Source: Steroidobacteraceae bacterium (lineage in GTDB: Bacteria; Pseudomonadota; Gammaproteobacteria; Steroidobacterales; Steroidobacteraceae). From it: DNA of 64,000 nt. The stretch spans positions 10,045-74,044 of the forward strand of contig JAHCAN010000013.1 of assembly GCA_019634915.1 (NCBI GenBank), written 5' to 3'. Under the pieces are notes generated by a model. That model was not told the DNA's origin. It did no database searches and saw only the letters and a list, made by a program, of their open reading frames with translations. Shown in pieces: positions 28,144 through 60,210 of this stretch; positions within the stretch are counted from its first letter, which is position 1; each line of letters opens with the position of its first letter. Both the position numbers and the translations under genes were made by a program.

Positions 28144-28145
28144 CG

Positions 28146-28591: not shown

Positions 28592-28624
28592 GGCGTGAAT
28601 CCGCACATATGCCACGGCCAGGAG

Positions 28625-29029: not shown

Positions 29030-29259
29030 TACAGCAGCTCGCGCTCTTCAGCCTCGGCAGGCTGTTCCCGCTCGCGCATGAAGTCCGGCGTGAATCTCGA
29101 ACGCGCGGCCCTCATGGACTCCCACGAGGTCTCCTTGGGGCGCAGCACCACGGCATTACCGGACTTGCTGATCCAGACCTCCGTGCCCGGCAGGCGAAAC
29201 TCCTTCGGCAGCCGCACAGCCTGACTGTCGCCATTTCTGAACAGCTTGGCGGTTCTCAT
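29029..29259 (-). CDS. vapB: AbrB/MazE(SpoVT)-fold antitoxin VapB
   Basis: Begins MRTAKLFRNGDSQAVRLPKEFRLPG, the typical swapped-hairpin antitoxin N-terminus. Confidence 0.85.
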   Translation of the reverse strand: MRTAKLFRNGDSQAVRLPKEFRLPGTEVWISKSGNAVVLRPKETSWESMRAARSRFTPDFMREREQPAEAEERELL

Positions 29260-29441
29260 GATTACCCCGATTCATATATATCTATTATATATATCTTAAG
29301 CATCCGGCCCTGTCGATGCGCAAATCCTGCGTCATCGCACCGATTGGCGGCCCGCGCAGCAGCCCGGGCATGTTGTGACGCATTCGACGACTCCCGGCAT
29401 CCACACTTGGCCGAGCGCGGCCATGCACACAAGATCGGGGC

Positions 29442-30185
29442 ATGACAAAAGCCGCTCTGGGCATCGCCATGCTGTGGGCCGGCTCGGCGATGGCACAGCC
29501 CGCGCCGAACGTGCAGATCGAGCTGTACGACGTCGACCCCGCGGGCGTCACGACCGTGCCGCCGCACACCAACGTGTACGGGCGCATCGTCTACACGACC
29601 GACGCCCCGGTGCGCCTCGTGCTGGTGCCGTACCGCAACGGCGAGCCCGTGCAGGATGGCTTCTACAACTCCGGCTCGCCGCAATACGCGCCGGGCAGCG
29701 GCGAGACCGTCGCCTGGTTCGGCTTCGACAAGCCCCAGACCATCGACGAGATCCGCGCGGTCGCCAATGATTTTCACGGCAAGGTCTTCGCCGAGGACTC
29801 GATCGAGCAGACGCTGCGCTGGCGCGAAGGAGCGACCAAGCCGCAGAAGGCGGCCTGGGTGGAACCCCTGCTGAAGGCCGAGAAGAACGTGATCGTGCCG
29901 CCGCCCGCCGAGTTCGGCTGGTTCGCGGCCGCCATCACGCAGTTGTTCTTCCTGCTGGTGCCGCTGTCGGTCGGTCTGCAGATCTATGCCTGGTACAAGC
30001 TCGACGGCGGCCCCGGCCGGCTCGCCCGCCTGTCGGGTTATGCGATGGGAGCCCTGTGGGTGTTCGTGATCCTGACCGGGATCGCAGGCAGCAATCTGTC
30101 GCCGATATGGCTCGTATTCCTGAGCCCGCTGTTCGCGATGTTTCTCGTCGGACTGCTCGTCGTCGCGCGTGCCCGGAGACGCTAG
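29442..30185 (+). CDS. Hypothetical exported/membrane protein
   Basis: Signal peptide (AMLWAGSAMAQP), a soluble domain of about 140 aa, then 3 predicted TM segments. No family recognised. Confidence 0.5.
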   Translation: MTKAALGIAMLWAGSAMAQPAPNVQIELYDVDPAGVTTVPPHTNVYGRIVYTTDAPVRLVLVPYRNGEPVQDGFYNSGSPQYAPGSGETVAWFGFDKPQTIDEIRAVANDFHGKVFAEDSIEQTLRWREGATKPQKAAWVEPLLKAEKNVIVPPPAEFGWFAAAITQLFFLLVPLSVGLQIYAWYKLDGGPGRLARLSGYAMGALWVFVILTGIAGSNLSPIWLVFLSPLFAMFLVGLLVVARARRR

Positions 30186-30544
30186 GCCACTGCCCGCAGA
30201 TCGAAGTCGGCGTGGATGATGTCGTACGGCACCAGATACTTGCCGTCCTGGCGCCGCTCGATCAACCCGTATTCCATGAGTCTGACGACATCCTCATGCA
30301 CACGCTTGACGTCGCGCCCGAGCTCCCGCGCCAGGCCACGCACGCTGCAAGGGCCCAGCTTCTGAGCCCGCTCGATCAGCTCCCAGCGCTTGGGTGACAA
30401 CACACGAAACAGGGCGGTCGGTGACTCGAACTGCAGCAGATCGCCCTGGGCTCTGCCCGTCTTCCATGCCTTGACGAAGTGCACACCCATCTCGCCGAGC
30501 GCGCGTTTCGGATTCGGGCGGATGCGTATCTCGACTTTCCTCAT
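30182..30544 (-). CDS. Winged-helix DNA-binding protein (MarR/ArsR-like), third gene after brnT-brnA
   Basis: Start MRKVEIRIRPNP (ATG at 30544). wHTH region CSVRGLARELGRDVKRVHEDVVRLMEYGLIERRQDGKY. Confidence 0.6.
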   Translation of the reverse strand: MRKVEIRIRPNPKRALGEMGVHFVKAWKTGRAQGDLLQFESPTALFRVLSPKRWELIERAQKLGPCSVRGLARELGRDVKRVHEDVVRLMEYGLIERRQDGKYLVPYDIIHADFDLRAVA

Positions 30545-30572
30545 TTCGATCCCATCACCTCCACGTCTCGAA

Positions 30573-30848
30573 TCAGCGGGCGTGCTTACGCCTTCTCGGC
30601 TTGGACCTGGCAAGCACCTCGGCCATACGGGTCTGCCAGCCAGGACCCGTCGCTTTCCATGAGGCGATCACCTCCGGTGCAAGGCGGAGTGAAAGAAGCT
30701 GTTTGGGGCTTTCGAGCCTCGGGCGCCCGCGACGGACCAATCTATTTCCGTGGTGCAAATCCGCCTCGGCTACCCAGATCTCTGTGATCTCCGGTGCCTC
30801 AGTGCTGCGTCGGGAAGTGCGGGCGGAGTAATTTCGCTTCACGCTCAT
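30573..30848 (-). CDS. brnA: BrnA-family antitoxin
   Basis: Sequence GRPRLESPKQLLSLRLAPEVIASWKATGPGWQTRMAEVL matches the BrnA pattern (GRP..K..VSLRLD..V...FK..G.GWQTR). The start is uncertain because the ORF overlaps brnT by 50 nt. Confidence 0.7.
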   Translation of the reverse strand: MSVKRNYSARTSRRSTEAPEITEIWVAEADLHHGNRLVRRGRPRLESPKQLLSLRLAPEVIASWKATGPGWQTRMAEVLARSKPRRRKHAR

Positions 30849-31080
30849 GACGATGCCTCATGCTGATAATTCGCCTGGCAATGCCTCGTGGAGTCCAGAC
30901 GAACACTACCAGTCTCGAATCGAGCCACCCAACCGTTACAAGACGAAGCTCACCGTAGTCGCCACGGTCATCCGTTCGCGTGAAATGGAACCCCGCAAAG
31001 ATCTCTCTGGCCCGGCGCATATCGAGGCCTCGCTCCTGAAGCGTGCGCTGGCGCTTCAGCGGATCGCAGGTAATGCGCAT
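30799..31080 (-). CDS. brnT: BrnT-family (DUF497) toxin
   Basis: Sequence CDPLKRQRTLQERGLDMRRAREIF...DYGELRLVTVGWLDSRLVVFVWTPRG..RRIISMRHRHEREAK follows the typical DUF497 pattern. Confidence 0.75.
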   Translation of the reverse strand: MRITCDPLKRQRTLQERGLDMRRAREIFAGFHFTRTDDRGDYGELRLVTVGWLDSRLVVFVWTPRGIARRIISMRHRHEREAKLLRPHFPTQH

Positions 31081-31259
31081 ATTTATTGTAGCTACGTTTA
31101 ATAACGATCGCAAGCGGCTGCTTTATGGAACCACCGGGATTACGCGAATCCGTACGATAGAACGACACGCATTCACCACGCGATCGCCCGGAAACTGGAA
31201 TAGAGCCCGAAACGGGCCGCGCTACTCTCGATCAAGACGGAATATTCCGCCGTGTTGGC

Positions 31260-31616
31260 TCAGCCTTTCATGACCCCCAGGCCGCGAGCCGCCGACGCGA
31301 GCCTCCCGTCGAGTGTCCACAGGCCGACGCCGGAAAGCCTGGCGGAAGCGAGCAGATGGATGTCGATCCATCCGAGACCACGACCATGAAGCTCGTGCGC
31401 CGCGAGGAAGTGCATTGCCTCCTCGTGGGAAACCTCAGGGCATCCCGGCAAATCCGCCAGCAGGGAAAGAATCGTGTCGCGCCGGCCGAGAGAACCGCAG
31501 GCAAGCTCACCGATGACGAGGGGGTGAGTTCGCACGTCTCCATCGTCGAGCAGTGTGGACAACGCTGGTGATCCGCGGCGCAGGTGCTCGATCCAGACGG
31601 AGGTATCGACGAGCAT
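31260..31616 (-). CDS. vapC: PIN-domain toxin VapC (second copy, different subfamily)
   Basis: Sequence MLVDTSVWIEHLRRG...HPLVIGELACGSL...WIDIHLLASARL. Confidence 0.85.
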   Translation of the reverse strand: MLVDTSVWIEHLRRGSPALSTLLDDGDVRTHPLVIGELACGSLGRRDTILSLLADLPGCPEVSHEEAMHFLAAHELHGRGLGWIDIHLLASARLSGVGLWTLDGRLASAARGLGVMKG

Positions 31617-31622
31617 CAGGGC

Positions 31623-31823
31623 TCATGCACGCCCGGAAGGGCGGCGTCGGGGAACGGGTTTGAGTTTCGGCGACGTACCGCCGAGTGCCGCGAGGCGACG
31701 GGCGCTCTCGCGCTCGATCAGCGCCCTGAGGCCAGCGTGGACCAGCGCCGTCTTTTCCGTGATGCCGGCCAGCCTGGAGGCTTTGCTCACCAGATCGCCA
31801 TCGAGATTCATGGTAGTTCTCAT
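31623..31823 (-). CDS. vapB: VapB-type (DUF2191-like) antitoxin
   Basis: Sequence MRTTMNLDGDLVSKASRLAGITEKTALVHAGLRALIERESARRLAALGG. The start is either 31823 or 31811. Confidence 0.75.
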   Translation of the reverse strand: MRTTMNLDGDLVSKASRLAGITEKTALVHAGLRALIERESARRLAALGGTSPKLKPVPRRRPSGRA

Positions 31824-31864
31824 ATGTATCAGTATGTATTTCCGATGCATATAGGGCAAATCGG

Positions 31865-32059
31865 GTGATTTATGCGGACTCGAATTATTCAGCCTATGTC
31901 CCAGACCTGCCTGGCTGTGTCGCAACTGGCGATACCCTGGCGGAGACAGAGGCGGCTATCCGCGAGGCTATCGCCTTCCACCTCGATGGGCTGCGCGAAG
32001 ATGGCTCACCCATTCCCCCTCCCTCGAGCAAGGTCGAATACGTCGAGGTTGCCGCGTAG
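31865..32059 (+). CDS. hicB: HicB-family antitoxin, with no hicA partner
   Basis: Contains YSAYVPDLPGCVATGDTLAETEAAIREAIAFHLDGLREDGSPIP. There is no room for a HicA-sized ORF on the + strand upstream. Confidence 0.75.
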   Translation: MIYADSNYSAYVPDLPGCVATGDTLAETEAAIREAIAFHLDGLREDGSPIPPPSSKVEYVEVAA

Positions 32060-32090
32060 CAAATTCCCGATGCGTCGCTAGAGCACGCAC

Positions 32091-32120
32091 TTTGCGCCGA
32101 CTCGCCACCAGTTCAGCGGC
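32091..32120. repeat. 30-bp direct repeat, copy 1 (TTTGCGCCGACTCGCCACCAGTTCAGCGGC)
   Basis: 29/30 identical to 34115-34144, read directly. Confidence 0.85.
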
Positions 32121-32388
32121 AATGAAGATGTCGCGGTTTTCGTCGATCGTGTAGATGACGAGATGGGATTCGACCGGATGCATACGCATCGGCGGCGTGA
32201 TTTCCAGGCGTTCACGGGCCGCTTCGGGATTCCCGGCGAAGAACCGGAACGTTCTTTACAGCAGCTCGTGATAGCGCTCCGCCTGCAGCGCGCCGAACTG
32301 CCGCGCCCCGCAGACGAATTGGGCCGGGCTCTCCAGCACGGCGTTGATGCCGCGAAAGAGTACGATCCTCGTCGTCGTGTTTCTATGC
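32091..32388 (-). pseudogene. ParE/RelE-like toxin remnant: no start codon and an in-frame TAA at 32256-32258
   Basis: Manual translation gives ...FGALQAERYHELL*RTFRFFAGNPEAARERLEITPPMRMHPVESHLVIYTIDENRDIFI..., which resembles ParE (WG..QA..Y...L...F..L...P..G....H.I.Y). The reading frame opens immediately after the upstream small gene. Confidence 0.5.
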
Positions 32389-32390
32389 CG

Positions 32391-32588
32391 TTACTTTTTG
32401 TGCCCGCCTACGAGTTCGCGGACTTTCGGAACCAGATCTCGCGGCACTTCCATGAGAGTACTGGCGTCGTTTCCCCCAGCCGCTTCATCCTCAGCGACCG
32501 CTTCGTCCTCGGATTGGGACTCGTAATGGTCGAGCACGCGCTGGACACGTTGCTTGTCCCAGCCACGCGGGAACTTGCTCTGTTTCAT
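32391..32588 (-). CDS. Small acidic protein, putative antitoxin of the decayed ParE-like gene
   Basis: 65 aa (KFPRGWDKQRVQRVLDHYESQSEDEAVAEDEAA). Sits immediately upstream of the toxin remnant. The family assignment is tentative. Confidence 0.45.
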   Translation of the reverse strand: MKQSKFPRGWDKQRVQRVLDHYESQSEDEAVAEDEAAGGNDASTLMEVPRDLVPKVRELVGGHKK

Positions 32589-32929
32589 GGACGTATTCTG
32601 CGCCTCTTGTCCATAAATGTGTGGACCACCAGTCTGCGGGCCGATGATGGCACGACAAGATGCACAGCAACGTGCAGCGCGTCGGCGGCCATCATGGGCG
32701 TGTCTCCAGCCAGACCGGATACGCGACGCCGATCACGGCGGGTGCGCACACCGGCCTGAAATACCCGCTGCCGGGGATGTGCTGCGCCGCATCGAACGGC
32801 GTACATGCCTGCATCACCATGAGCTGCCAACGCACCGTGCCATAGTGGCTCGCCAGCCATTACATGCGGCAGAACACCGCGCCGGGCATGAACGCCACGG
32901 CGTCGCCAGCGGCAGGCCGGGACGTCCGG

Positions 32930-34096
32930 CTATTTCTTGCGCTTCCTGGGAAGCCGCGTCCCGCGCGATTCGATCTGCCGCTGCGTGTTCTCCAGCTCCC
33001 TTTGCAACAGCTCGGCATCGGGCAGCACGATCTTGTAGTTCGCCGCCATCACCTTGTTGGGCAAGCCTTCGAGCGCATACCGCGCCAAAGCGTGCCCCTT
33101 GTCGGCGCACAGGATCAGGCCCACGGGCGGGTTCTCGTCGGCCACCATCCAATGCTCCTTCGCATAGTTGCAATACAGGTGCATCTGGCCCACGTCCGCA
33201 TGGGTCAGCGCGCCGAGCTTCAAATCGATGATGACCAGGCAGCGCAAGCGCCGGTGGAAAAACAACAGATCGACGCGATACCAAGTCTGGTCGATGCGCA
33301 AGCGCCGCTGCCGCCCGGCGAAGGTAAATCCGTCACCCAGCTCCAGCAGAAAATCCTCCAGTCGCCGGATCAAGGCTTGTTCGAGGTCGGATTCGGAACA
33401 CTCATCCTTGATGTCAAGGAACTCCAGTACATACGGGTCTTTGATGGCGTCATCCGGCGTGACGGCATCTTCCGGCTTCGGCACGGCGCCCTTGACCAGC
33501 ATCGCCGCCTTGTTCTTCGACAGCGCCGTGCGTTCGTAGAACTGGCTGTTGATCTGCCGGTCGAGCTGGCGCACGCTCCAGCCACCGTGCAGGGCTTCGG
33601 CCTCATAGAATCGACGCGCGTGCTCGTCCTTGACCACCAGCAGCCGCGCATAGGCCGACCACGGTAGCGCGAAGAACTGCGCCAATTCGACAAGGCCCAA
33701 ATTCCCGGACACCGTCTGGGATTTCCCGACCGACAGCGCGCCCCCAGATTTCCCAGACAGTGTCTGGGAAATTGCGGGACGGGGATACGCGAGGAAGAAG
33801 CGCCGCATGTTCTCCAGGTTGTTGACGCCGAACCCGCGCCCGAACTGCGCGGTCAAGTCGGCAGACAGGCGCTCCATCAACTGCTCGCCATAGCCCGCGC
33901 GGCGCTTGCCCCGCTGCTCGGCTTCGACGATGCGGCGGCCTATTTCCCAATAGCTCGCCGTCATCAGCGCATTGACGCTGCGCGCCGCCGCCTGGCGCGC
34001 AGCGTCCAGCAAATCGACGATGCCGCTGTGGATGCCAGCATAGCCAGCCGGCAAGGCGGCGGATTTCCCCACCGCCGAAAGTTTCTTGTTGGTCAC
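32930..34096 (-). CDS. YhcG-family (DUF1016) PDDEXK nuclease-domain protein
   Basis: N-terminal region (AARSVNALMTASYWEIGRRIVEAEQ). C-terminal restriction-endonuclease-like core (IDLLFFHRRLRCLVIIDLKLG). Start placed at the GTG at 34096, downstream of the terminator-like hairpin inside the longer ORF. Confidence 0.8.
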   Translation of the reverse strand: MTNKKLSAVGKSAALPAGYAGIHSGIVDLLDAARQAAARSVNALMTASYWEIGRRIVEAEQRGKRRAGYGEQLMERLSADLTAQFGRGFGVNNLENMRRFFLAYPRPAISQTLSGKSGGALSVGKSQTVSGNLGLVELAQFFALPWSAYARLLVVKDEHARRFYEAEALHGGWSVRQLDRQINSQFYERTALSKNKAAMLVKGAVPKPEDAVTPDDAIKDPYVLEFLDIKDECSESDLEQALIRRLEDFLLELGDGFTFAGRQRRLRIDQTWYRVDLLFFHRRLRCLVIIDLKLGALTHADVGQMHLYCNYAKEHWMVADENPPVGLILCADKGHALARYALEGLPNKVMAANYKIVLPDAELLQRELENTQRQIESRGTRLPRKRKK

Positions 34097-34114
34097 AAAG
34101 CCCCTGCGAATCGT

Positions 34115-34144
34115 TTTGCGCCGATTCGCCACCAGTTCAGCGGC
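34115..34144. repeat. 30-bp direct repeat, copy 2 (TTTGCGCCGATTCGCCACCAGTTCAGCGGC)
   Basis: 29/30 identical to 32091-32120. Confidence 0.85.
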
Positions 34145-34175
34145 CTCGCGCACCGGATCATCCTCGGTGTGAATG

Positions 34176-34201
34176 AAAAAACCGCCCGAAGGCGGCTTTT
34201 T
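34176..34201 (-). terminator. Rho-independent-type hairpin (CCGCC-loop-GGCGG) flanked by A6 and T5 runs, downstream of mazEF
   Basis: Read directly: aaaaaaccgcccgaaggcggcttttt. On the minus strand the stem is followed by T6. Confidence 0.5.
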
Positions 34202-34360
34202 CGTCCCAGGCCAAAGCCAAGTGAATGACCCGGCCAAGGAGGAGTGGTGCGAATACTGTGCCTACCGCTTCCGCGCCTATCAAGCCGATTTTCCGTCTTC
34301 AGGGCACTGAATCTCCGCATCCACCACCAGTGTCACGCCGTGCAGGCCGCCGTATGCCGT

Positions 34361-34705
34361 TTATCCCGCTCCTCCCAGTATCCGCCCTACCCGCTTCATG
34401 ACTTGTCCGAGCACGGCAGCGCTGACGACACCGATCTTCCCGGCGGCAGCCGAATCGATCGTGGCGATCTTCGCCGTGCGGATGACCGACGGCACGGGCA
34501 GACCCGCCGAAGCGAGATCACGCACGGCGACGTCATCAGGCCAGCCGCGATTCTCCGCGCTGGTAATCATCAGGACCCAGGCGAGACCATGTACATCATG
34601 AAGCCGGGCATCCGAGATCACGAGAGCCGGGCGCCATTGCCGGGTGGCGCGGTCGGCGCGCGCGAACGGGACCTTGATGACATCGCCCCGGCTAAAGCTT
34701 TCCAT
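34361..34705 (-). CDS. mazF: PemK/MazF-family toxin
   Basis: Start MESFSRGDVIKVPF (ATG at 34705), followed by RPALVISD...WVLMITSAENRGW...PSVIRTAKIATID. Confidence 0.85.
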   Translation of the reverse strand: MESFSRGDVIKVPFARADRATRQWRPALVISDARLHDVHGLAWVLMITSAENRGWPDDVAVRDLASAGLPVPSVIRTAKIATIDSAAAGKIGVVSAAVLGQVMKRVGRILGGAG

Positions 34706-34910
34706 AGGCCTTGCGGTCGGCGGCGGATTCCCATTCATGGAATGCCCGGAACGGCTCATCGCCTGCGCCATCCCGCTTCACCCTGGAGAGCACGACGCGC
34801 TCGCCATCGATCTCGTACAGCAGCTCGTCCCCCTTCTGCAGGCGCAGCGCCGCGCGCACCGGCTGGGGAATCGTGGTCTGGGCCTTGCTGGTCAGTTTGC
34901 TCGTGATCAT
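34692..34910 (-). CDS. mazE: AbrB/MazE-family antitoxin
   Basis: Start MITSKLTSKAQTTIPQPVRAALRLQKGDEL (ATG at 34910). Overlaps mazF by 14 nt. Confidence 0.8.
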   Translation of the reverse strand: MITSKLTSKAQTTIPQPVRAALRLQKGDELLYEIDGERVVLSRVKRDGAGDEPFRAFHEWESAADRKAYGKL

Positions 34911-35348
34911 CGGGGAAGCTCGCGTGGAGTACCCCGGATGGTAAGGATTTTCCTTACGCACTTCCAGCCGGGCTCGATCACGCACGGAGGATCCGTTGTG
35001 GCGGTGATATCAGCCACGGACGTTTCGGGTGTGAATGTTCTGAATTGGGAGTACGACGTCAGCGCCACCATCGTTGACGCTGCACCATTGGCAGCCGGAG
35101 TACGGACCCAGGAGGGCGGAAGCAGAACTGGCTGCGAGAGCCCGCCCTGCAGTCACCCGTAAGCTCATAATTTATTGATATATATGTATATTTTTACATC
35201 GTGCGTCGCAGAGAGCCCACGAACTATACCCATCCGTGCCTGAGTCGCGACGCTGACCACCTGTGAGCCTCCTCACGTCAGACTTCGACCGCTTCTGACC
35301 TAATACGATTTAACAGTTGGTCGGAACCCGTCAGCGAGAAGTCCCGGA

Positions 35349-47099: not shown

Positions 47100-47941
47100 T
47101 CGCAGCCTGCTTCGTTCTGGGGCTGCTGGTCGGCAGCTTCCTGAACGTGGTGATCCATCGCACGCCGGTCATCCTCGATCGGCAGTGGCGGCGCCAGTGC
47201 GACGAACTCGCGGGCCGGGAGACACCAGAGGCGCCGCGCTACAACCTCGTCGTGCCGCGCTCGGCCTGCCCCTCGTGCAAGGCGCCGATCAGGGCGATCC
47301 ATAACGTGCCGGTGCTCAGCTGGCTCGCGCTACGCGGCAAGTGCGCGGCCTGCAAGGCGAAGATCAGCCCGCGCTATCCGCTGGTCGAGCTGCTGACCGC
47401 GGTGTTGTCCGCCGCCGTTGCGTGGCAATTCGCGCCGCTTGGCCTGCCGGTCATGGGCGCAGCGATCGTGCTCACCTGGTTCCTGATCGCTCTCACCTTC
47501 ATCGACTTCGACACGCAGTTGCTGCCCGACGCGCTGACACTGCCGCTGCTGTGGCTCGGGCTCGCGGCCAGCGTGCTCGGCCTGACGCCCGTGGAGCCGC
47601 GCTCGGCGATCATCGGCGCGCTCGCCGGCTACCTCTCGCTGTGGTCCGTCTATCACCTGTTCCGTCTCGCGACGGGCAAGGAAGGCATGGGCTACGGCGA
47701 CTTCAAGCTGCTCGCCGCGCTCGGCGCGTGGCTCGGCTGGCAGATGCTGCTGCCGATCATCCTGCTGTCCGCCGCAGTGGGCGCGGTGACCGGCATCGCG
47801 CTGATCGTCGTGCGCGGCGGCCGCGATCGCAACGTGCCGATCCCGTTCGGCCCCTTCCTCGCCGCGGCCGGCTGGATCGCGTTGATGTGGGGGCCACAGA
47901 TCGTCTCGGGTTATCTCGGGATGTATGGGCGGGGAATGTAG
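47096..47941 (+). CDS. pilD: Prepilin peptidase / N-methyltransferase PilD
   Basis: Cys-rich N-terminal region (CPSC...CAAC). A24 peptidase Asp motifs (FIDFDTQLLPD; GMGYGDFKLLAALG). Confidence 0.95.
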   Translation: MIAACFVLGLLVGSFLNVVIHRTPVILDRQWRRQCDELAGRETPEAPRYNLVVPRSACPSCKAPIRAIHNVPVLSWLALRGKCAACKAKISPRYPLVELLTAVLSAAVAWQFAPLGLPVMGAAIVLTWFLIALTFIDFDTQLLPDALTLPLLWLGLAASVLGLTPVEPRSAIIGALAGYLSLWSVYHLFRLATGKEGMGYGDFKLLAALGAWLGWQMLLPIILLSAAVGAVTGIALIVVRGGRDRNVPIPFGPFLAAAGWIALMWGPQIVSGYLGMYGRGM

Positions 47942-47944
47942 CCG
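47861..47944 (+). repeat. pilD 3'-end repeat, copy A (the functional end of pilD)
   Basis: 84 bp, 80/84 identical to 48655-48738 by manual alignment. Confidence 0.9.
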
Positions 47945-47984
47945 TCCGAGGTCACCAGAACGGGCGATTGTCAATCAGGGGTGT

Positions 47985-48395
47985 TCAACGCCGTACGCGC
48001 CGGGCCCGGTGAATGGAACGTCGGCGCTGAACTGCCGGTTTCGATATCGTCGCCACCTCGGACCGATTTACGGTATCAGCGATAGCCGCAAATCCCTTGA
48101 TCCGCACTGGTTCGCGATCGGGAAATCGAACGGTCAACACGAGTTCACCGCCCATTTGCCCGATGTAGTCACGCAGAGTGGACAGCAACATGTCGCTTCG
48201 TTGCTCGAGGCGGGAAATGCTGTGCTGCCTGACTCCCAACCGCTTCGCCATTTTCTGTTGTGTGAGCTGACGAGCCTGCCGCAGATCACGCAGTGACTTC
48301 TCCTCTGCGACCAACTCCGCCGTGCGACCAGCGATGCGATCGCGGCGCGCGGGCGCAAGTTCGGCCATCAGTTCTTCGTGAGTCCTGCCCACCAC
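47985..48395 (-). CDS. XRE-family HTH antitoxin (cassette 1); the toxin upstream is decayed
   Basis: Contains LRDLRQARQLTQQKMAKRLGVRQHSISRLEQRSDMLLSTLRDYIGQMGGELVLTVRFPD. GTG start preceded by AGGAG. Confidence 0.7.
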   Translation of the reverse strand: MVGRTHEELMAELAPARRDRIAGRTAELVAEEKSLRDLRQARQLTQQKMAKRLGVRQHSISRLEQRSDMLLSTLRDYIGQMGGELVLTVRFPDREPVRIKGFAAIADTVNRSEVATISKPAVQRRRSIHRARRVRR

Positions 48396-48617
48396 AATCT
48401 CCTATTCCTCGAATGTCGTCAGGTGCACGTCGAATCGTGCGTCGGCTTTCGCGATCAATTGCTTGTAAAACCGCCTCTCGCTACCACCCGATACGGGATT
48501 ATGCCCTCAAAAGGATATCCATTCAAGAGGATATATTGTCGTGAGCACATTGGCGGTACGTCGGCGAATTTAATCGTGCGAGCCGCCTCGCGCGATCCGC
48601 GAATCCATGCTGCTGCA

Positions 48618-48632
48618 CCCGAAATTGCGCAC
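48618..48632. repeat. 15-nt core CCCGAAATTGCGCAC, copy 1 of 3
   Basis: Identical 15-mers at 48618, 50808 and 51705. Flanks to the left are also similar (GCGATYCG...AATCC). Confidence 0.9.
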
Positions 48633-48654
48633 GCCTGGCCACGAGACAATCATC

Positions 48655-48738
48655 GCCGCGGCCGGCTGGATCGCGCTGATGTGGGGGCCGCAGATCGTCT
48701 CGGGGTATCTCGGGATGTATGGGCGGGGGATGTAGCCG
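48655..48738 (+). repeat. pilD 3'-end repeat, copy B (displaced, non-functional)
   Basis: Encodes the same peptide AAAGWIALMWGPQIVSGYLGMYGRGM* as copy A. All 4 nucleotide differences are synonymous. Confidence 0.9.
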
Positions 48739-48807
48739 GGGGCAAATCTGCTCGAACACAGGTGAAATGCCAGCTGACGGCTATAGGCAGTGGCTACATC
48801 ATGAGCC

Positions 48808-49047
48808 ATGAGCCCGACGGTCCTACGCGATCGAGGATATCGGTTTTACTTCTTCTCGCGCGAAGAGCTCCGGATGCATGTCCATGTACATGGTCCTGAT
48901 GGCGAGGCCAAGTTCTGGCTGGAGCCCCGCGTCGAATTGGCGCACAATCTTGGCTTGAAACCTCAAGATATGCGAACCATCAAGGCTTTTGTTGAGGATA
49001 ACGCCCATGTCTTCCGCAACGCCTGGAAAAGACACTTCAGCGGTTGA
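48808..49047 (+). CDS. DUF4160-family protein
   Basis: Sequence RGYRFYFFSREELRMHVHVHGPDGEAKFWLEP follows the typical DUF4160 pattern. Confidence 0.7.
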   Translation: MSPTVLRDRGYRFYFFSREELRMHVHVHGPDGEAKFWLEPRVELAHNLGLKPQDMRTIKAFVEDNAHVFRNAWKRHFSG

Positions 49048-49276
49048 AGTTACGAACGTATCGCCCCACGGCTTCTGGCTGCTGCTCGGTGGCGAGGAGC
49101 TGTTCCTCGCGTTTGAAGACTTCCCGTGGTTCAGGAACTCGACCATCGGCCAGCTCTCGCATGTCGAGAGGCCCGCGCCGCATCACTTGTATTGGCCGGA
49201 GCTCGACATCGACCTTGCGGTGGAATCCATCCGGTACCCGGAGGCGTTCCCGCTCGTATCCAAGGCCGGCGCATAG
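49007..49276 (+). CDS. DUF2442-family protein
   Basis: Contains VEVTNVSPHGFWLLLGGEELFLAFEDFPWFRNSTIGQL...LYWPELDIDL. Overlaps the DUF4160 gene, as is usual for this pair. Confidence 0.7.
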   Translation: MSSATPGKDTSAVEVTNVSPHGFWLLLGGEELFLAFEDFPWFRNSTIGQLSHVERPAPHHLYWPELDIDLAVESIRYPEAFPLVSKAGA

Positions 49277-49298
49277 CGCCGCCTGACCGGGCTGGGCT

Positions 49299-49760
49299 TC
49301 AGAATAGCCGCGTGTCCAGCACGAAGGCCTCCACGCTGGCGATCCGTATGGCGGCAGCCGCAGGGTGCCGATGATTGACGAGCACGATTTCGTCCGGCGA
49401 ATCCCGTAGCGGCACTATCGCGGAAGGCACACGCAACAGCGGCGTGGCGAGCGCCGCGTGCCACTCGTCGCCACGCTGTTGGGTCCGGCTCTCCTGCAAC
49501 CTCCACGCATCTGGCAGGGTGGCAAAGGCCACAGTCTCGGCCTGCAGGCCGTTCGGCACGTCATATCGCACCATCACGAGAGCCGGCAGCAGTTCCGGGT
49601 CCTGCACATGCGCGAGCTTCTCGAGCACGCACAGCGAAGGCGAAGTGGCGCAGTAGGTCACCGCATGGCCGGCGCTGTTCCAGCGGCCGTCGTAATGCAG
49701 CCCGTAGCCACCGTCGAACGCGCGCGCATGCGCTGCGCCGGACAGTCGCCAGAGAATCAT
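49299..49760 (-). CDS. RES-domain toxin (NAD+-degrading family)
   Basis: Contains GGYGLHYDGRWNSAGHAVTYCATSPSLCVLE...LRVPSAIVP, carrying the R, E and S signature residues. Confidence 0.85.
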   Translation of the reverse strand: MILWRLSGAAHARAFDGGYGLHYDGRWNSAGHAVTYCATSPSLCVLEKLAHVQDPELLPALVMVRYDVPNGLQAETVAFATLPDAWRLQESRTQQRGDEWHAALATPLLRVPSAIVPLRDSPDEIVLVNHRHPAAAAIRIASVEAFVLDTRLF

Positions 49761-50305
49761 CAGGCGGCGGCACCCCAGGCGATCTTGGCGAGGATGGTTT
49801 CGACCACGCGCGCACCGGTCTCGGTCTGGGCGAAGTCCAGCGGGGCTGCGCCACGCAGTTCGGCCAGCGGGCGGCGCAGCCAGATATTGCCCTTGTCACG
49901 GCTGCCGAACACATTCTCGGCCACGGTCTGAATGCGCAGCATCCGCACGGCGCGGTCGGACTCCTCCAGGGTGAGCGGCTGTTTCTTCCCGGCGCGATGA
50001 CGGCGCGTGCGCTGCGGGATCACGAAGCGATCGATCTCGCTTTCCGAAAAGCCGGCCGCAGCCAGCCCCCTAAGTGCCGCCAGCGGCAAGCGCCGGCCAA
50101 TGGCGAGCGCCAGATCGGCCTGGGAGCGTACAGCCGCACCCAGCACGGACTCGCCACCGAGCTTGCGGGCGACTTCGTCGATGACAGTGGGCACGCGGGC
50201 TCCTTGGGCGAGGCGGCAATATGCCCAACTATAGACGGCATATTGCCGAGCAACAACCCTCAAGGGCATATCGATTCTTGCTGCGGAACTCATCCGGCGC
50301 CCCAT
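49760..50305 (-). CDS. Xre/MbcA/ParS-type antitoxin (DUF2384 toxin-binding domain)
   Basis: C-terminus reads LTLEESDRAVRMLRIQTVAENVFGSRDKGNIWLRRPLAELRGAAPLDFAQTETGARVVETILAKIAWG. Its stop overlaps the RES start by 1 nt, and its ATG overlaps the higA stop (ATGA). Confidence 0.8.
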   Translation of the reverse strand: MGRRMSSAARIDMPLRVVARQYAVYSWAYCRLAQGARVPTVIDEVARKLGGESVLGAAVRSQADLALAIGRRLPLAALRGLAAAGFSESEIDRFVIPQRTRRHRAGKKQPLTLEESDRAVRMLRIQTVAENVFGSRDKGNIWLRRPLAELRGAAPLDFAQTETGARVVETILAKIAWGAAA

Positions 50306-50670
50306 CAGGCCCGCAAACGCGGCAACTTTCGGATGTCGGCGCCGGATTCCTGTTCGGCCACCCGCAATTCGTACAGCTTCTGCAGATTCAACCAGAACTC
50401 GCCACTCGTGCCGAAGAAATGCCCGAGCCGCAGCGCCGTATCTCCGGTGACCGCGCGCTGCCCGTTGATGATCTGCGTGACCCTGTTGGTGGGCACGCGT
50501 ATCTGGCGAGCAAGCTCGGCAGCGCTCATTCCCAGAACCTCGAGTTGTTCGGCGAGATGTTCGCCGGGGTGAATGGCAGTACGCACTTTTCTGGCCTTAA
50601 TGTGCTCCGCGGAATATTCCGTCGAATGCCTTGACCCCGAAGCTCGCCGCAAACCTTCGTGTTCGCGCAT
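50305..50670 (-). CDS. higA: HigA-family antitoxin (no intact higB)
   Basis: Contains IHPGEHLAEQLEVLGMSAAELARQIRVPTNRVTQIINGQRAVTGDTALRLGHFFGTSGEFWLNLQ. The roughly 30-aa N-terminal extension may be spurious. Confidence 0.8.
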   Translation of the reverse strand: MREHEGLRRASGSRHSTEYSAEHIKARKVRTAIHPGEHLAEQLEVLGMSAAELARQIRVPTNRVTQIINGQRAVTGDTALRLGHFFGTSGEFWLNLQKLYELRVAEQESGADIRKLPRLRA

Positions 50671-50807
50671 CGCGATAACCCAGAATCATGCCTTATTACC
50701 TTGTGCCGTTATACGCATTACGTCAAGCGTAACTACTATCCATGAGACCGATGGTGAATGTAATTGTGAGCATTGGCTCACGCGATCGGTGAAACCTGTG
50801 TCATTGC

Positions 50808-50822
50808 CCCGAAATTGCGCAC
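50808..50822. repeat. 15-nt core CCCGAAATTGCGCAC, copy 2, followed by a degenerate pilD 3'-end fragment (50838-50866)
   Basis: GCCGCGGTCGACATCGCGCTGATGTGGGA compares with GCCGCGGCCGGCTGGATCGCGCTGATGTGGGG in copies A and B. Confidence 0.8.
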
Positions 50823-50917
50823 TTGCTGGCGCAGGGTGCCGCGGTCGACATCGCGCTGATGTGGGACCGCCTCAGACCATCAGGCCCGCAGGTATAGCAG
50901 TGCCTCCAGCGAGGCAA

Positions 50918-51133
50918 CTACGTCGTGCGCACTTTCACCACTTCACCTCTCGAGGTGGGCTGAGGAACTGGTTGCCCTGATTCGCGTAGCGCTTCGATGT
51001 GAAGGGCAATGGCGTCGCGAATGAGCCTCACAGCGTCGCGGTGGGTGTCGGAAGCTGCGATACAACCGGGCAGATCCGGCACATATGCTCCGTAGCTGGA
51101 TGCGCCCTTCTCCACAATAACGAGATATTCCAT
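50918..51133 (-). CDS. hicB: HicB-family antitoxin (second orphan)
   Basis: Contains MEYLVIVEKGASSYGAYVPDLPGCIAASDTHRDAVRLIRDAIALHIEALRESGQPVP. Only a 14-codon ORF lies upstream. Confidence 0.8.
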   Translation of the reverse strand: MEYLVIVEKGASSYGAYVPDLPGCIAASDTHRDAVRLIRDAIALHIEALRESGQPVPQPTSRGEVVKVRTT

Positions 51134-51184
51134 GGCCCGGCCCTCAGTCCTTCTTGAGCCTCACGCTCTTCAGAATAGGGTGTT

Positions 51185-51511
51185 TCATCCGGCGGCGACA
51201 GTTATGCCGTGCCGCCGCGCGTGCCGGATGGGACGTACAACGATCTCGACATGTTGATCCAGGGCCACCAACGCGTGCATCAGCCGTTCGAGCGAGATGT
51301 TCTGCAATTTGTAGCAACGAACCTGGGATATTTTTGGCTGGGTCATGCCAATGACGGCAGCTGCTTCGATCTGTTTGAGGCCGCGCTCGTCGATCAACTC
51401 ATTCAACCTGACCGCAAGCGCGGCCTTGGCCGACAGCTCCTCCGCATCGTCGAAGCCAAGGTCGAGTAATACGTTGGCAGTACCTCGAGAGCCCTGCTTG
51501 CGTGACATCAT
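51185..51511 (-). CDS. XRE-family (HTH_37-like) antitoxin
   Basis: Contains VLLDLGFDDAEELSAKAALAVRLNELIDERGLKQIEAAAVIGMTQPKISQVRCYKLQNISLERLMHALVALDQHVEIVV. Confidence 0.75.
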   Translation of the reverse strand: MMSRKQGSRGTANVLLDLGFDDAEELSAKAALAVRLNELIDERGLKQIEAAAVIGMTQPKISQVRCYKLQNISLERLMHALVALDQHVEIVVRPIRHARRHGITVAAG

Positions 51512-51704
51512 GATCTCCTGCTGCTCCCATAACGGGCGAGCAATGCCTCAAATCACCAGTTTGCATTTCGCGCTCGTGATTATATCTGTTCGGATATAGA
51601 GTGCAAACCGCTGATTCCATGCGGTGATTGCATCGCGGTCGACCTCGCCACGAAACTTGATCACGAGAATCACCCCAGGCGATTCGCTAATCCACGCCAT
51701 CGAA

Positions 51705-51719
51705 CCCGAAATTGCGCAC
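51705..51719. repeat. 15-nt core CCCGAAATTGCGCAC, copy 3, about 70 nt upstream of coaE
   Basis: Read directly. Confidence 0.9.
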
Positions 51720-51789
51720 CCACGACCGCAAGGCAATAATCGATGCAATGCACACCTTCGCCGCAACCAGTCTCTCGCGGTAACCCCCG

Positions 51790-52434
51790 ATGCAGAAGAC
51801 CTTCCGCGTCGGCCTCACCGGCGGCATCGCCAGCGGCAAGACCACGGTCGCCAATCTCTTCGCCGCGCTCGGCGTGCCGGTCATCGACACCGACCAGATC
51901 TCGCGCGACGTCACGGCCCCAGGCTCGCCGCTACTCGTGCAGCTGCGCGACGCTTTCGGCCCCGACATCCTGACGCCCGACGGCGCGCTCGACCGCAAGG
52001 CGCTGCGCGCGCGCGTGTTCGGCGATAGCCCCGAGGCGACCGCGGCACGCCGCCGGCTCGAAGCGCTGACCCATCCGGCGATCCTCGCCGAGATGGAGGC
52101 GCGCTCGGCGCGGGCCGGCGGGCCCTATCAGATCCTCGCGATCCCGCTGCTCACCGAGGGCCAGTCGCGCTCGCGCGTCGATCGCGTGCTGGTCGTCGAC
52201 GCCGACGAGGCCACGCAGATCCGCCGCCAGCAGGCCCGCGACGGCTCGACCCTCACCGAGGCGCGCGCGGTGCTCGCGGCGCAGGCCGACCGGGCCACGC
52301 GGCTCGCGGCCGCCGACGACGTGATCCGCAACGACGGCGACATTGGCGCGCTCGCGGCCCAGGTCGAGCGGCTGCATGCGGCCTATCTGGCCGCCGCGGG
52401 CGTTTACGGGGGCGGACGGCGTCAAGCACAATAG
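51790..52434 (+). CDS. coaE: Dephospho-CoA kinase
   Basis: P-loop VGLTGGIASGKTTV. Conserved position between pilD and zapD. Confidence 0.9.
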   Translation: MQKTFRVGLTGGIASGKTTVANLFAALGVPVIDTDQISRDVTAPGSPLLVQLRDAFGPDILTPDGALDRKALRARVFGDSPEATAARRRLEALTHPAILAEMEARSARAGGPYQILAIPLLTEGQSRSRVDRVLVVDADEATQIRRQQARDGSTLTEARAVLAAQADRATRLAAADDVIRNDGDIGALAAQVERLHAAYLAAAGVYGGGRRQAQ

Positions 52435-53245: not shown

Positions 53246-53436
53246 AGGTCGCCTGCCCCACCTGCAAGCGCGAGACCGAGTGGTCGGCCGACGCGCCCTA
53301 CCGGCCGTTCTGCAGCGAACGCTGCCGGCTGATCGACCTCGGCGCCTGGCTCAGCGAGGAACACGCGATTCCCGGCGAAGAGCTGCCGCGGGAGATCGAC
53401 GAGGAGGCTAATTCTCCCCCTCACCGGACACGCTGA
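53242..53436 (+). CDS. yacG: DNA gyrase inhibitor YacG (zinc finger)
   Basis: Contains [10 protein letters not shown]...[23 protein letters not shown]. The probable TTG start overlaps the zapD stop. Confidence 0.8.
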
Positions 53437-53800
53437 GGGCGGCGATCGCTCGGCGCAATACTGCGGCATCCATTTGGTCCTTGGGTCTGACGCCTTGCTT
53501 GGTCAGCAATAACCCTTCGAGGCTCAATACCTGCAACGGGACGCCGTCCATAAAGACATCCGCTTCCGCCCCGAGCTCCCTCACGGCGCCATCGGGCAGG
53601 CGGCCGAGTGCCAATACCCAGCGGCGGGCGTTCTCGGCACCAGGCTCGACCAGTATGTCGATATCCTCGGAGAAACGATTGAGCCCATGCGCGGCGATTG
53701 CATAGCCGCCGACGAGTGCATATTCGACACCGGCATCCGCGAGATACCTGGCCAGCTCTCGCAGATCGTCCCAGGTCGCCGGTCGCGTGTACTCAGCCAC
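53408..53800 (-). CDS. Small nucleotidyltransferase-fold protein (AbiEii/MNT-like)
   Basis: Contains [29 protein letters not shown]. Its 3' end overlaps the yacG 3' end by 29 nt (convergent). Confidence 0.6.
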
Positions 53801-54050
53801 GCTCCGACCGGCGCGCGATCATTGCATCGATGGTCCAGCGCTCGCGATCGCGCGCCATCTCCTCGTGAGTCCGATAGACGAAGACACCCTTTGGCGCCCG
53901 TGTCAGGTAGCGCGCATTCGCGGTCATCGCATCGCGGGCTGCTCTCGACGGCAATTGGCCAATCGGCGGCGCCACTCGCCGCCCGACGATTCGCTGAATC
54001 GGTTGCTGGTCCGGTGCGATCGAGGGCGCGGCGGGTACGGCGCGTTTCAT
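53793..54050 (-). CDS. Small hypothetical protein, putative partner of the nucleotidyltransferase
   Basis: 85 aa, overlaps the nucleotidyltransferase start by 8 nt. C-terminus reads KGVFVYRTHEEMARDRERWTIDAM. No family assigned. Confidence 0.4.
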   Translation of the reverse strand: MKRAVPAAPSIAPDQQPIQRIVGRRVAPPIGQLPSRAARDAMTANARYLTRAPKGVFVYRTHEEMARDRERWTIDAMIARRSERG

Positions 54051-58637: not shown

Positions 58638-58979
58638 ATGCCAGCACGTAATACACTTACGGCGGCGGCGCCGTACCCCGTGGAACAGGCGCTCAAGCGC
58701 CTGGGCGCCAACCTGCGCACGGCCCGGCTGCGGCGAAATCTGACTATCGAGAACGTCGCACAGAAGATCGGTACCGGGCCGAGGCCCGTCGCCGACGCCG
58801 AGAAGGGCAAGGTTTCAACGAGCGCTGCGGTCTACATGGCGCTGCTGTGGGCTTACGACCTGCTGGCTCCGGTGGACTCTATTGCCGACCCCGCCCTCGA
58901 TCGCGAGGGGCTCGCACTGTCCATCCGACGCAAACGCGCACGGACGCAGCGCTCGCAGGAGCTGGACAGTGACTTCTGA
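58638..58979 (+). CDS. hipB: XRE-family antitoxin HipB-like
   Basis: HTH region LGANLRTARLRRNLTIENVAQKIG. Immediately precedes and overlaps hipA. Confidence 0.75.
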   Translation: MPARNTLTAAAPYPVEQALKRLGANLRTARLRRNLTIENVAQKIGTGPRPVADAEKGKVSTSAAVYMALLWAYDLLAPVDSIADPALDREGLALSIRRKRARTQRSQELDSDF

Positions 58980-60210
58980 GTGCTTCGTCCACATCGTGCT
59001 GCCTGGTGAAACCGGATTCGTTCCGGCAGGGCGATTTCGCCTCGACATCGATCGCCACGGCATCGCGACGGGCAGGTTCGTCTACGGCAAGAGCTATCTG
59101 GCGCGCGACAACGCCGTGCCAATCGATCCGATCGAACTCAAACTCGCTTCCGGCAGCTTCGAGACACGTCTGCTGAAAGGCGTCTTCGGCGCAATCCGCG
59201 ATGCGAGCCCCGACTCCTGGGGCCGCCGCGTGATCGAAAAGCGTGCCGGTAAAGCCCCACTCGGCGAGGTCTATTACCTGCTCCAGTCGCCCGACGACCG
59301 AGCGGGCGCACTCGGCTTCAGCCTCGAGGCCGAGCCTCCCGGGCCGCACCCGGAATTCAACGGCACGACGAGCCTGCAAAGGCTTCAGAACTTCGCGGAC
59401 CGGATCATTGCCGACGAAGACCTTCCTCAAGAATTGCTCCTCGAAGGCACATCGATGGGTGGCGCCCGCCCCAAGGTCGTGGTCGAGGACGACGGCGCGC
59501 TGTGGATCGTGAAATTCAACCGGCCGGACGATCAGTGGAACCATGCGCGCATCGAGCGCGCGACGCTCGAGCTTGCCCGCGCCTGCGGCATTCATACCGC
59601 CGACACGCGGCTGACATCGATCGGCGATCGCGACGCGTTGCTCGTCAAGCGCTTCGACCGCGGGTGGACCAGCCAGGGCTACCGGCGCGCACGCATGCTG
59701 AGCGCACTCACGCTGCTGCGCGCGGAGGACACGCATACCGATCGCGCGAAATGGTCGTATGTGCTGCTCGCCGAGGAACTGCGACGTCTTTCAGCGCGCC
59801 CGCAAGACGACGCACCCGAGCTGTTCAGACGGATGTGCTTCAACGCGCTGATCAGCAACAGCGACGATCATCCGCGCAATCACGCGGTGATCGCGATGGA
59901 AAGCGCCTGGCGTCTGTCCCCCGCGTACGATCTGATCCCGAGTCCGCAGATCAGCCTCGAACACCGCGATCTCGCACTGGCCTGTGGCGACATGGGCCGC
60001 TACGCACATGCGGACAATCTGCTGTCGCAAAGCGCGCGCTTCCTCGTGAGCCGCGAAGACGCCGTCACGATCATCGATACGATGGAGCAAACGGTCAGGG
60101 AGCGCTGGCACGAGATCGCCCGCCGCGAAGGCGTCACGGCAAGGGACTGCGAGGCGATCAGCGGCGCGTTCGCGTATCCGGGATTCCGGCTCGCGCTGCC
60201 GCGGAACTAG
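58969..60210 (+). CDS. hipA: HipA-family Ser/Thr kinase toxin
   Basis: GTG at 58969 overlaps hipB by 11 nt. Motifs SMGGARPKVVV, WIVKF and FNALISNSDDHPRNHAV (catalytic loop). Confidence 0.85.
   Translation: MTSECFVHIVLPGETGFVPAGRFRLDIDRHGIATGRFVYGKSYLARDNAVPIDPIELKLASGSFETRLLKGVFGAIRDASPDSWGRRVIEKRAGKAPLGEVYYLLQSPDDRAGALGFSLEAEPPGPHPEFNGTTSLQRLQNFADRIIADEDLPQELLLEGTSMGGARPKVVVEDDGALWIVKFNRPDDQWNHARIERATLELARACGIHTADTRLTSIGDRDALLVKRFDRGWTSQGYRRARMLSALTLLRAEDTHTDRAKWSYVLLAEELRRLSARPQDDAPELFRRMCFNALISNSDDHPRNHAVIAMESAWRLSPAYDLIPSPQISLEHRDLALACGDMGRYAHADNLLSQSARFLVSREDAVTIIDTMEQTVRERWHEIARREGVTARDCEAISGAFAYPGFRLALPRN

Follow-up and report, generated by a model that had tools for sequence, protein, structure and literature searches.

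How did a series of toxin–antitoxin (TA) genes come to lie between pilD and coaE, which adjoin each other in most related bacteria, and by what kind of recombination? The question is posed by a 64,000-nt stretch of contig JAHCAN010000013.1 (assembly GCA_019634915.1; hereafter the window), which derives from a soil bacterium of the Steroidobacteraceae and matches the metagenome-assembled genome GCA_026125335.1. In the window, the prepilin peptidase gene pilD and the dephospho-CoA kinase gene coaE are 3.85 kb apart (Table 1). From the letters alone it had been proposed (the original prediction) that small addiction cassettes were captured serially and site-specifically at the 3′ end of pilD. The comparisons reported here support the view that small foreign TA blocks accreted stepwise at this gene end; they do not establish a dedicated system that captures cassettes as an integron does.

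The junction was compared in 80 loci from related GTDB species, in 74 of which both pilD and coaE are visible. The two genes abut or overlap (0–90 nt apart) in approximately 70 of these 74, and in the closest species (PilD 86%) they overlap by ATGA; the 3.85-kb stretch is thus an insertion. Empty sites of this kind had been expected of the relatives, with different cassette numbers as the alternative; the variation of the array between strains is described below. Over most of its length the insert has a G+C content of 0.56–0.63 (a single 600-nt segment reaches 0.68), compared with 0.67–0.75 in coaE and the genes beyond it and 0.68 in the segment that holds most of pilD.

At the left border of the insert the 3′ end of pilD is duplicated. 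Positions 47856–47944 (the working end, D0) recur at 48650–48738 (within a displaced end, D1) as an 89-nt direct repeat of 94% identity. The 84 bp originally described as the end of the gene are indeed repeated, but their extent needs correction: the pilD stop codon ends at 47941, and 3 nt lie past it. Over these 84 nt the two copies differ at four positions (47882 T/C, 47896 A/G, 47911 T/G and 47935 A/G), all of them synonymous, as had been noted, and both copies translate into the same 26 codons, AAAGWIALMWGPQIVSGYLGMYGRGM, followed by a stop; under random substitution the probability that all four differences are synonymous is 0.003. A third, degenerate copy had also been noted, and it is real (D2, Table 1). 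None of the 80 related species loci contains a downstream duplicate of its own pilD end.

The identity of the changed copy can be judged from other strains. The 84-nt D0 of a 95%-identical strain (GCA_045864705.1, here L104; PilD 98%) is exactly D1 of the window, so the four differences represent changes in the working copy of the window; they are better explained by D0 of the window having changed under selection while D1 stayed as it was. The overall strain divergence of ~5% predicts ~4 changes per 84 nt. In the Logan assembly SRR34578578 (L102; ~95.5% nucleotide identity to the window), D0 differs from D1 of the window at one further position. D1 of L102, of L104 and of a JGI sample carries nonsynonymous changes or a stop, and is not under selection in these samples.

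Two assembly-related observations concern the same region. In an ENA short-read assembly of the same strain, contigs NODE_628 and NODE_335, which overlap by ~105 nt, break exactly at the repeated pilD end (window 48650–48780); breaks of this kind mean that such arrays are likely to be missed or under-reported in metagenome-assembled genomes. PilD of the window also contains an extra glycine (VVRGGRDRN, 47815–47826; 281 aa), which is missing from the ENA and Logan copies and from the three closest database homologues (280 aa).

The displaced copies are preceded by a second repeated sequence. As had been noted, the identical 15-mer CCCGAAATTGCGCAC stands before each of them and a third time before coaE; its only occurrences in the window, with up to two mismatches allowed, start at 48618, 50808 and 51705, and three matches were reached in none of 100 shuffles. 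The third occurrence stands, but no recognisable pilD copy follows it (z ~1); after 70 nt coaE begins. Similarity to the left of the 15-mer, also noted before, extends over 26–55 nt and is accompanied by ~22 nt to the right: 48563–48694 aligns with 50753–50876 and 48592–48655 with 51679–51742, in both cases far above all shuffles. We refer to this cassette-borne sequence of 60–130 nt around the 15-mer as module M. The alignment of M1 with M3 is ungapped (72% over 64 nt), that of M1 with M2 is gapped, and a multiple alignment shows AATTGCGCAC to be invariant. The module ends in ...AAT(C/A)ATCG, and in units 1 and 2 the pilD homology (TCG CCG CGG...) starts exactly there.

The 15-mer had been taken for the shared core of the recombination. 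This part of the proposal does not hold, because the 15-mer is absent from pilD itself; it is likewise absent from all 80 related species loci. M as a whole was not found outside the species of the window, whether in the 80 relatives, JGI metagenomes, IMG/VR, plasmids or phages. A scan of the JGI metagenomes for the module gave six matches, approximately the chance expectation, with no likeness beyond the pattern; IMG/VR held no match for the module or the pilD-end pattern, and the plasmid and phage records no M-like match. A protein search with the M1–D1 reading frame returned only two short open reading frames (ORFs), both from the species of the window.

Several identities for M were tried and rejected. 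As an attC-like or otherwise structured element it fails, in agreement with the earlier remark that no attC-type structure is recognisable: the 105-nt stretches at the three 15-mers fold no better than shuffles on either strand (z = −0.19 to −1.45) and share no common hairpin; Rfam gave no match with E values as high as 1. An origin as a toxin-gene remnant was dismissed, the RelE/ParE match being limited to 48420–48488 and the toxin of L102 ending to the left of the operon promoter; alignments of M to pilD upstream of the repeat and to the intact DUF2442 gene were not above shuffles. A weak lead in the latter direction is a frame in which every M copy reads AI(R/G/L)E(S/T)....PKLRT, and in L104 M-like sequence comes after a DUF2442 stump. 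On its minus strand M has the sequence GTGCGCAATTT-CGGGTG-CAGCAGCATGG, whose left arm is partly XerC-like, and a dif/Xer site was rejected for want of a XerD arm (both judged by eye, no statistics). Inverted 15-mers at the left ends of the cassettes were also sought; the best matches have 3–4 mismatches, which is within the window-wide rate. Spacer X, between M3 and coaE, is not significantly similar to hicA (45 of 500 shuffles).

Close relatives show the array in different states. The layout of L102 is like that of the window (pilD, cassette 1, M1, D1). From cassette 1 over M1 and D1 as far as DUF4160–DUF2442, the array of L104 runs parallel to that of the window; RES/ParS, partly deleted, has then given way to a hicA stump plus hicB, and the two arrays share HigA, M2 (its 15-mer having a single mismatch), D2 and HicB at 88% identity. 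In place of window positions 51153–51803, L104 has three elements: the stump of a DUF2442 gene, a fourth copy of the M core, and a plus-strand hicB-hicA pair that is intact and reaches up to coaE. This fourth core (CTCAATTGCGCAC-22 nt-AATAATCG) is identical to M1 and M3 at 27–28 of 33 positions, a level attained in none of 500 shuffles. Cassette content thus differs between strains. The breakpoints between the window and L104 lie inside cassettes and in the first codons of coaE, away from the borders of M and D. These first codons read MQKTF in the window (51790–51804), MY in L104 (14558–14563), MRIF in a relative with 87% PilD (GCA_902826575.1, L105; position 13532) and MTY in L005; as they differ among close strains, replacement breakpoints reach the 5′ end of an essential gene.

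In L105, the working pilD end runs straight into DUF4160–DUF2442 (10758–11380, collinear with window 48650–49266, 82%), and the window differs from L105 by exactly one unit of 794 bp, i.e. cassette 1, M1 and one D copy. The L105 array contains no M and no 15-mer. It does contain, ~280 nt past DUF2442 (11667–11825), a displaced pilD fragment composed of codons ~204–254, a 57-nt gap and GMFASGR with a stop, which starts at a point of pilD ~140 nt upstream of the junction of the window. C-termini of the GMFASGR type are typical of other clades (GMFAAGR, GMFAPGR, GMFAS), PilD of the window's clade ending in GRGM, and because the displaced fragment has such an other-clade C-terminus, an earlier insertion in L105 also brought a replacement pilD end. 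The prediction of serial additions with replacement ends thus stands: D0, D1 and D2 in the window, together with the working and displaced ends of L105, point to more than one event. Between the displaced fragment and coaE of L105 lies an AAA_14/DUF4143 ATPase gene, and before coaE a HipA C-terminal fragment, read from the translation and with no Pfam match on record.

The same junction has been occupied elsewhere. Another clade independently has TA genes between pilD and coaE, with no pilD duplicate (L024 and L022). In L024 (10894–13450) these are HigBA, a Fic gene and HigB/HigA remnants, and a stretch of ~58 nt from the 5′ end of HigB is repeated at 12870 and 13261; in L022 (3791–4201) an orphan HigA abuts coaE.

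The genes of the array (Table 1) are those originally read from the sequence: Pfam assigns HTH_37 to cassette 1, DUF4160/DUF2442, RES with Xre_MbcA_ParS_C, and HTH_3 to cassette 2, and a HicB-like family and HTH_37 to cassette 3. These contents bear on the possibility of a purely local origin, in which the pilD end and its downstream segment were duplicated in tandem by unequal crossing-over and then diverged, with no horizontal insertion. Such an origin would account for the direct orientation and common register of the repeats, and the second DUF2442 stump of L104, located just upstream of M-like sequence, hints at unit content that was once shared. Against it, the cassette contents are unrelated, and the identical gene content expected of a tandem duplication is not seen even in the two HTH_37 antitoxins (BLASTP E = 0.74). 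Furthermore, D0 of L104 equals D1 of the window over 84 nt, yet M1 is only partly like M2 and M3, which leaves no single age for a duplication; the G+C content of the insert is below that of coaE and the genes beyond; ~70 related species have no insert; and M is not significantly like pilD or the intact DUF2442 gene. A local origin is already largely refuted, and we regard it as very improbable.

Table 1. Features of the pilD–coaE interval (positions in the window; Pfam families are from precomputed matches for the identical NCBI contig).
Feature	Position	Strand	Basis or remark
pilD, prepilin peptidase, 281 aa	47096..47941	+	ORF list; Pfam A24_N_bact and Peptidase_A24
D0, working pilD 3′ end, left copy of the direct repeat	47856..47944	+	89-nt repeat; translation
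Cassette 1, left end			sequence TAGCCGTCCGAGGTCACC
Sequence expected right after pilD upon precise deletion			GGGGGCAAATCTGCTCG
Cassette 1 antitoxin, HTH_37/XRE type	47985..48395	-	Pfam HTH_37
Cassette 1 toxin remnant, RelE/ParE-Gp49	48396..48490	-	tblastn: toxin residues 90-112 at 48420-48488
Promoter-like site, cassette 1 TA operon	48498..48526	-	TTGAAT-17-CATAAT; directly upstream of the L102 toxin start
M1 (15-mer 48618-48632), ends ...AATCATCG	48563..48654	+	alignments to M2 and M3; multiple alignment
D1, displaced but intact 3′ end of pilD with the 14 nt following its stop	48650..48752	+	repeat; translation; L105 orthology
DUF4160 (48808-49047) and DUF2442 (49007-49276), cassette 2	48808..49276	+	Pfam; directly after pilD in L105
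RES toxin (49299-49760) and Xre/ParS-type antitoxin (49760-50194)	49299..50194	-	Pfam RES, Xre-like-HTH, Xre_MbcA_ParS_C
HigA-like HTH_3 antitoxin, no partner toxin, cassette 2	50305..50670	-	Pfam
M2 (15-mer 50808-50822), right end short by 7 nt	50753..50837	+	pairwise and multiple alignments
D2, decayed pilD-end copy with indels	~50837..50880	+	local alignment, z = 4.8-6.0 against shuffles
HicB-like antitoxin without hicA, cassette 3	50918..51133	-	Pfam HicB_lk_antitox
Second HTH_37 antitoxin, cassette 3	51185..51511	-	Pfam
Promoter-like site, second HTH_37 gene	51579..51607	-	TTTGCA-17-TATAAT, 10/12
M3 (15-mer 51705-51719), ends ...AATAATCG	51679..51742	+	alignments; in L104 a homologous core immediately precedes hicB-hicA
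Spacer X, 47 nt, before coaE	51743..51789	+	not significant against pilD or the L104 hicBA block
coaE, dephospho-CoA kinase	51790..52434	+	Pfam CoaE; first codons strain-variable

The account that we favour, and to which as a whole we give an even chance, combines stepwise accretion at the pilD end with general recombination of the host, a promoter in M and later deletion of toxins. One unit would consist of a pilD-end copy (D), then TA genes, then M. An incoming D would join the resident pilD end over the ~100 bp that they share, starting with the TCG of codon 254 and reaching 14 nt beyond the stop, and would become the working end of the gene; the previous end would be pushed downstream, where D1 (intact) and D2 (decayed) would remain as direct repeats. 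M is cassette-borne DNA rather than the crossover site, and ends in ATCG where the pilD homology starts. The joining itself would be performed by host general recombination across the pilD-end repeat, with entry either by a single crossover of a circle or by allelic replacement once DNA of a strain that already has the unit is taken up, and the founding M–D joint may have formed by illegitimate joining through the TCG microhomology. After insertion, the core of M (TTGCGC-17-AAT[A/C]AT plus an ATTGC...GCAAT dyad) might serve as a rightward promoter or operator that keeps the downstream plus-strand genes transcribed, ultimately coaE, cut off from the pilBCD operon. Toxins would later be deleted while antitoxins persist, and deletions and replacements would ignore the borders of the units.

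General recombination is favoured for four reasons: (i) the newest duplication was long, and identical when the strains split, (ii) the junction positions differ between events, (iii) turnover ignores unit borders, and (iv) no attP-bearing element was found in any collection searched. There is also a possible trace of exchange. At one variable site the copies are swapped, T being present in D0 of the window and in D1 of L102 and L104, and G in the reciprocal copies, which weakly suggests exchange inside the pilD-end repeat.

The proposal that M carries a promoter starts from the invariant AATTGCGCAC, which includes TTGCGC and is followed 17 nt on by AAT(A/C)AT, with the dyad ATTGC...GCAAT. The second hexamer is retained in M1 (which faces DUF4160), M3 (which faces coaE) and M3′b of L104 (which faces hicBA), that is, wherever a plus-strand gene follows; it is missing from M2, which faces no plus-strand gene. 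Judged by this pattern, the core of M may be a rightward, outward promoter or operator that rescues transcription of coaE; if so, the locus would show how insertions into an operon avoid silencing an essential downstream gene. A plasmid homologue of hicB-hicA starts 11 nt after a Tn3 transposase gene and is uninformative for the promoter idea.

Several points weigh against the favoured account. The difference between the window and L105 is unpolarised; a crossover of D0 with D1 would remove precisely the unit concerned, so that L105 could have lost it. The swapped site may be a parallel mutation (chance ~0.05 by a rough estimate). Beside coaE, spacer X of the window contains no detectable pilD remnant (z ~1). 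The promoter reading is weak, with 7–8 of 12 consensus positions matched and no hit in a consensus scan, and M2 retains the 15-mer despite the missing second hexamer. The joints M1–D1 and M2–D2 fall on one and the same nucleotide, and unrelated cassettes have homologous M sequences at their right ends, both of which a site-specific recombinase acting on M and D predicts. Finally, M–D joints occur in one species-level lineage only, in which the sampling is thin.

The fifth of these points leads to the main rival, dedicated capture, in which a tyrosine or serine recombinase encoded elsewhere would act in trans on M and the pilD-end site and move circular cassettes; the other alternatives fit worse. 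Besides the homologous modules with their invariant AATTGCGCAC and the joint at the same nucleotide in two units, it would explain why exactly one unit separates the window from L105 and why arrays vary between strains. A recombinase was sought among called genes and selected ORFs at ~0.7–18.3 kb and ~19.4–62.4 kb of the window and within 10 kb on either side in L104 and L105; no recombinase family was found in any of these regions, in line with the earlier statement that the window contains no integrase. The 15-mer is missing from pilD and so is not the shared core; no M-like site was encountered in any of the collections named above, and M lacks a favourable fold. In addition, the newest duplication comprises ~100 identical bases, more than a typical core, the differences between the window and L104 lie inside cassettes, and the displaced fragment of L105 begins ~140 nt further upstream in pilD. 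The last two facts, with no recombinase detected in the scanned regions, leave the site-specificity claimed in the original prediction unproven. We consider dedicated capture possible but doubtful, and unlikely in its specific form, in which the M–D joint would be the attachment site of an unlinked recombinase and the pilD end a landing pad for TA cassettes, a non-integron platform with an outward promoter. The significance of the locus would rise sharply if such a recombinase acting on M–D existed.

In the closest known pattern, integrative elements and cis-mobilizable elements (CIMEs) accrete in tandem where a gene has its 3′ end, e.g. the ICESt1/ICESt3 family of integrative and conjugative elements at fda of Streptococcus thermophilus (PMC5704250). 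CIMEs are defined as units bounded by direct repeats and devoid of integration and transfer genes (PMC5704250). The pilD array is alike in that a conserved gene is targeted at its 3′ end, the incoming unit provides the end that works and its predecessor is left as a direct repeat (D0, D1 and D2; the two ends of L105), and several units without integration or transfer genes stand in tandem between repeats, although the right-hand repeat of the third unit is unrecognisable. It differs in that its units measure 0.8–2.2 kb and contain TA-type genes only, its shared repeat is ~100 bp long, a conserved non-coding module occupies the right ends, turnover ignores unit borders, and no integrase-bearing partner is known: no integrase-bearing element of the same attachment specificity was found in the 80 species, JGI metagenomes, IMG/VR or the phage and plasmid records.

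This likeness raises the alternative that the units are stumps of decayed integrative elements (conjugative, mobilizable or prophage) at the pilD end, of which the TA genes next to the right attachment site have survived. The replacement 3′ end with its displaced predecessor is a hallmark of such elements, and TA modules resist deletion while the toxin is active. However, none of the three arrays contains a fragment of an integrase, transfer or phage gene, and their non-coding gaps are too short for one; the units are only 0.8–2.2 kb long; and IMG/VR and the phage and plasmid records yielded no related full-length element with this pilD end. We therefore judge the derivation from larger elements to be rather improbable, and return to accretion of small units by general recombination as the preferred account.

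Chromosomal integron arrays, such as the Vibrio superintegron, often hold TA cassettes. Like them, the pilD array is made up of small, mostly unrelated cassettes, each closed by a related junction sequence, its TA genes have their own promoters, and it varies from strain to strain. Unlike them, it has no detected intI, attI or Pc (Phage_integrase and all other recombinase families being absent from the scanned parts), its genes lie on both strands, its junctions lack the R″/R′ motif and a favourable single-strand fold, with no GTTRRRY/RYYYAAC pair visible around M, and its repeat is the coding end of a housekeeping gene. The array is not an integron, and its likeness to integron arrays is confined to the outcome.

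Genomic islands stacked at the end of an RNA gene are similar in that repeated insertion leaves direct repeats of that end as island borders, whereas those islands span many kb and have their own integrases. The pilD array is a small variant of this known stacking, without a detected integrase. Homology-facilitated illegitimate recombination during natural transformation, reportedly treated by de Vries and Wackernagel in 2002, has been demonstrated in laboratory work with Acinetobacter, Pseudomonas stutzeri and Streptococcus; it is not known to have been demonstrated in Steroidobacteraceae. It shares with the present case a one-sided anchor in a conserved gene, a microhomology join, independence from a dedicated recombinase and variable junction positions, as between the window and L105; the recurrence of the same junction module is not explained by this process alone.

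Two other systems were compared. The pdif modules of Acinetobacter plasmids carry TA genes between 28-bp XerC/XerD sites, each composed of a XerC arm, a 6-bp centre and a XerD arm (TTATGTTAAAT-like). Both there and at pilD, small TA modules without a recombinase of their own lie between short repeated sequences, which in pdif are recombination sites, but in M only GTGCGCA resembles a XerC arm and no XerD arm was seen by eye. Tn7-like insertion involves tnsABCD-type genes, terminal repeats and a 5-bp target duplication, and the target gene's end is not duplicated. It was rejected for pilD, where the scanned parts contain no transposase families and the duplication is ~100 bp of coding sequence.

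The cassettes also record the loss of toxins. In cassette 1, the suggestion of a dead toxin is correct, the last 23 codons of a RelE/ParE-Gp49 toxin being preserved at 48420–48488, and on plasmids the homologues of its antitoxin immediately follow RelE/ParE toxins; in cassette 3, for which the same had been suggested, no remnant is detectable. L102 has 234 extra bases at window position 48491 (reverse complement, 812–1046), with a called Gp49 gene; the toxin is called there as 84 aa, compared with 117 aa in more distant homologues. By this comparison, the window and L104 have lost most of the cassette 1 toxin through a 234-bp deletion at 48491. The deletion joined the promoter region of the operon to the last codons of the toxin, and the antitoxin remains; the site at 48498–48526 is, by its position and hexamers, the predicted promoter of this operon itself. 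Distant homologues of the cassette 1 antitoxin occur at unrelated loci (e.g. beside a peptidase S9 gene) with no integrase.

In the remaining cassettes, RES with Xre_MbcA_ParS_C is an apparently intact pair of known type II TA families, and DUF4160/DUF2442 is a presumed TA pair. The antitoxin-family genes without a toxin are the two HTH_37 genes (of which that in cassette 1 keeps the toxin stump), the HTH_3/HigA-like gene, upstream of which there is no minus-strand ORF of at least 40 aa, and the HicB-like gene. A look-up of a ClpB-like ORF found nothing.

Taken across strains, the locus offers an unusually clean series of TA pile-up and decay at a conserved operon junction: the array is seen as an empty site, as one block with an old gene end and as three blocks, and the toxin as nearly full length, as deleted and as an antitoxin left alone. 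It indicates that the signature of a replacement end plus a displaced end can arise with units of less than 1 kb to 2 kb and with no integrase detected locally. The series bears on the origin of orphan antitoxins and small islets, and on general recombination across a duplicated gene end as a device for cassette exchange.

Other variable stretches are present in the window. Between pilR and the pilin-accessory genes (27850–35300) lies a second TA-rich stretch of lower G+C content, with HTH_26/Gp49, PIN/MazE, BrnT/BrnA, PIN/VapB, HicB, YhcG and PemK/MazE; its counterpart is AbiEi/AbiEii in L104 and a single 247-aa gene in L105. This stretch contains no M module or pilD-end copy; a 30-nt sequence occurs twice in it, at 32091 and 34115. 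An unannotated pair of genes encoding 130 aa and 85 aa lies between yacG and the peptidase S9 gene (53408–54050, minus strand); it is present in the window and in the ENA assembly and absent from L104, and thus forms another strain-variable islet. Downstream of the peptidase genes (~58680–60210) there is a hipB-like (HTH_31) and HipA_C pair, and the TA density of the window is high.

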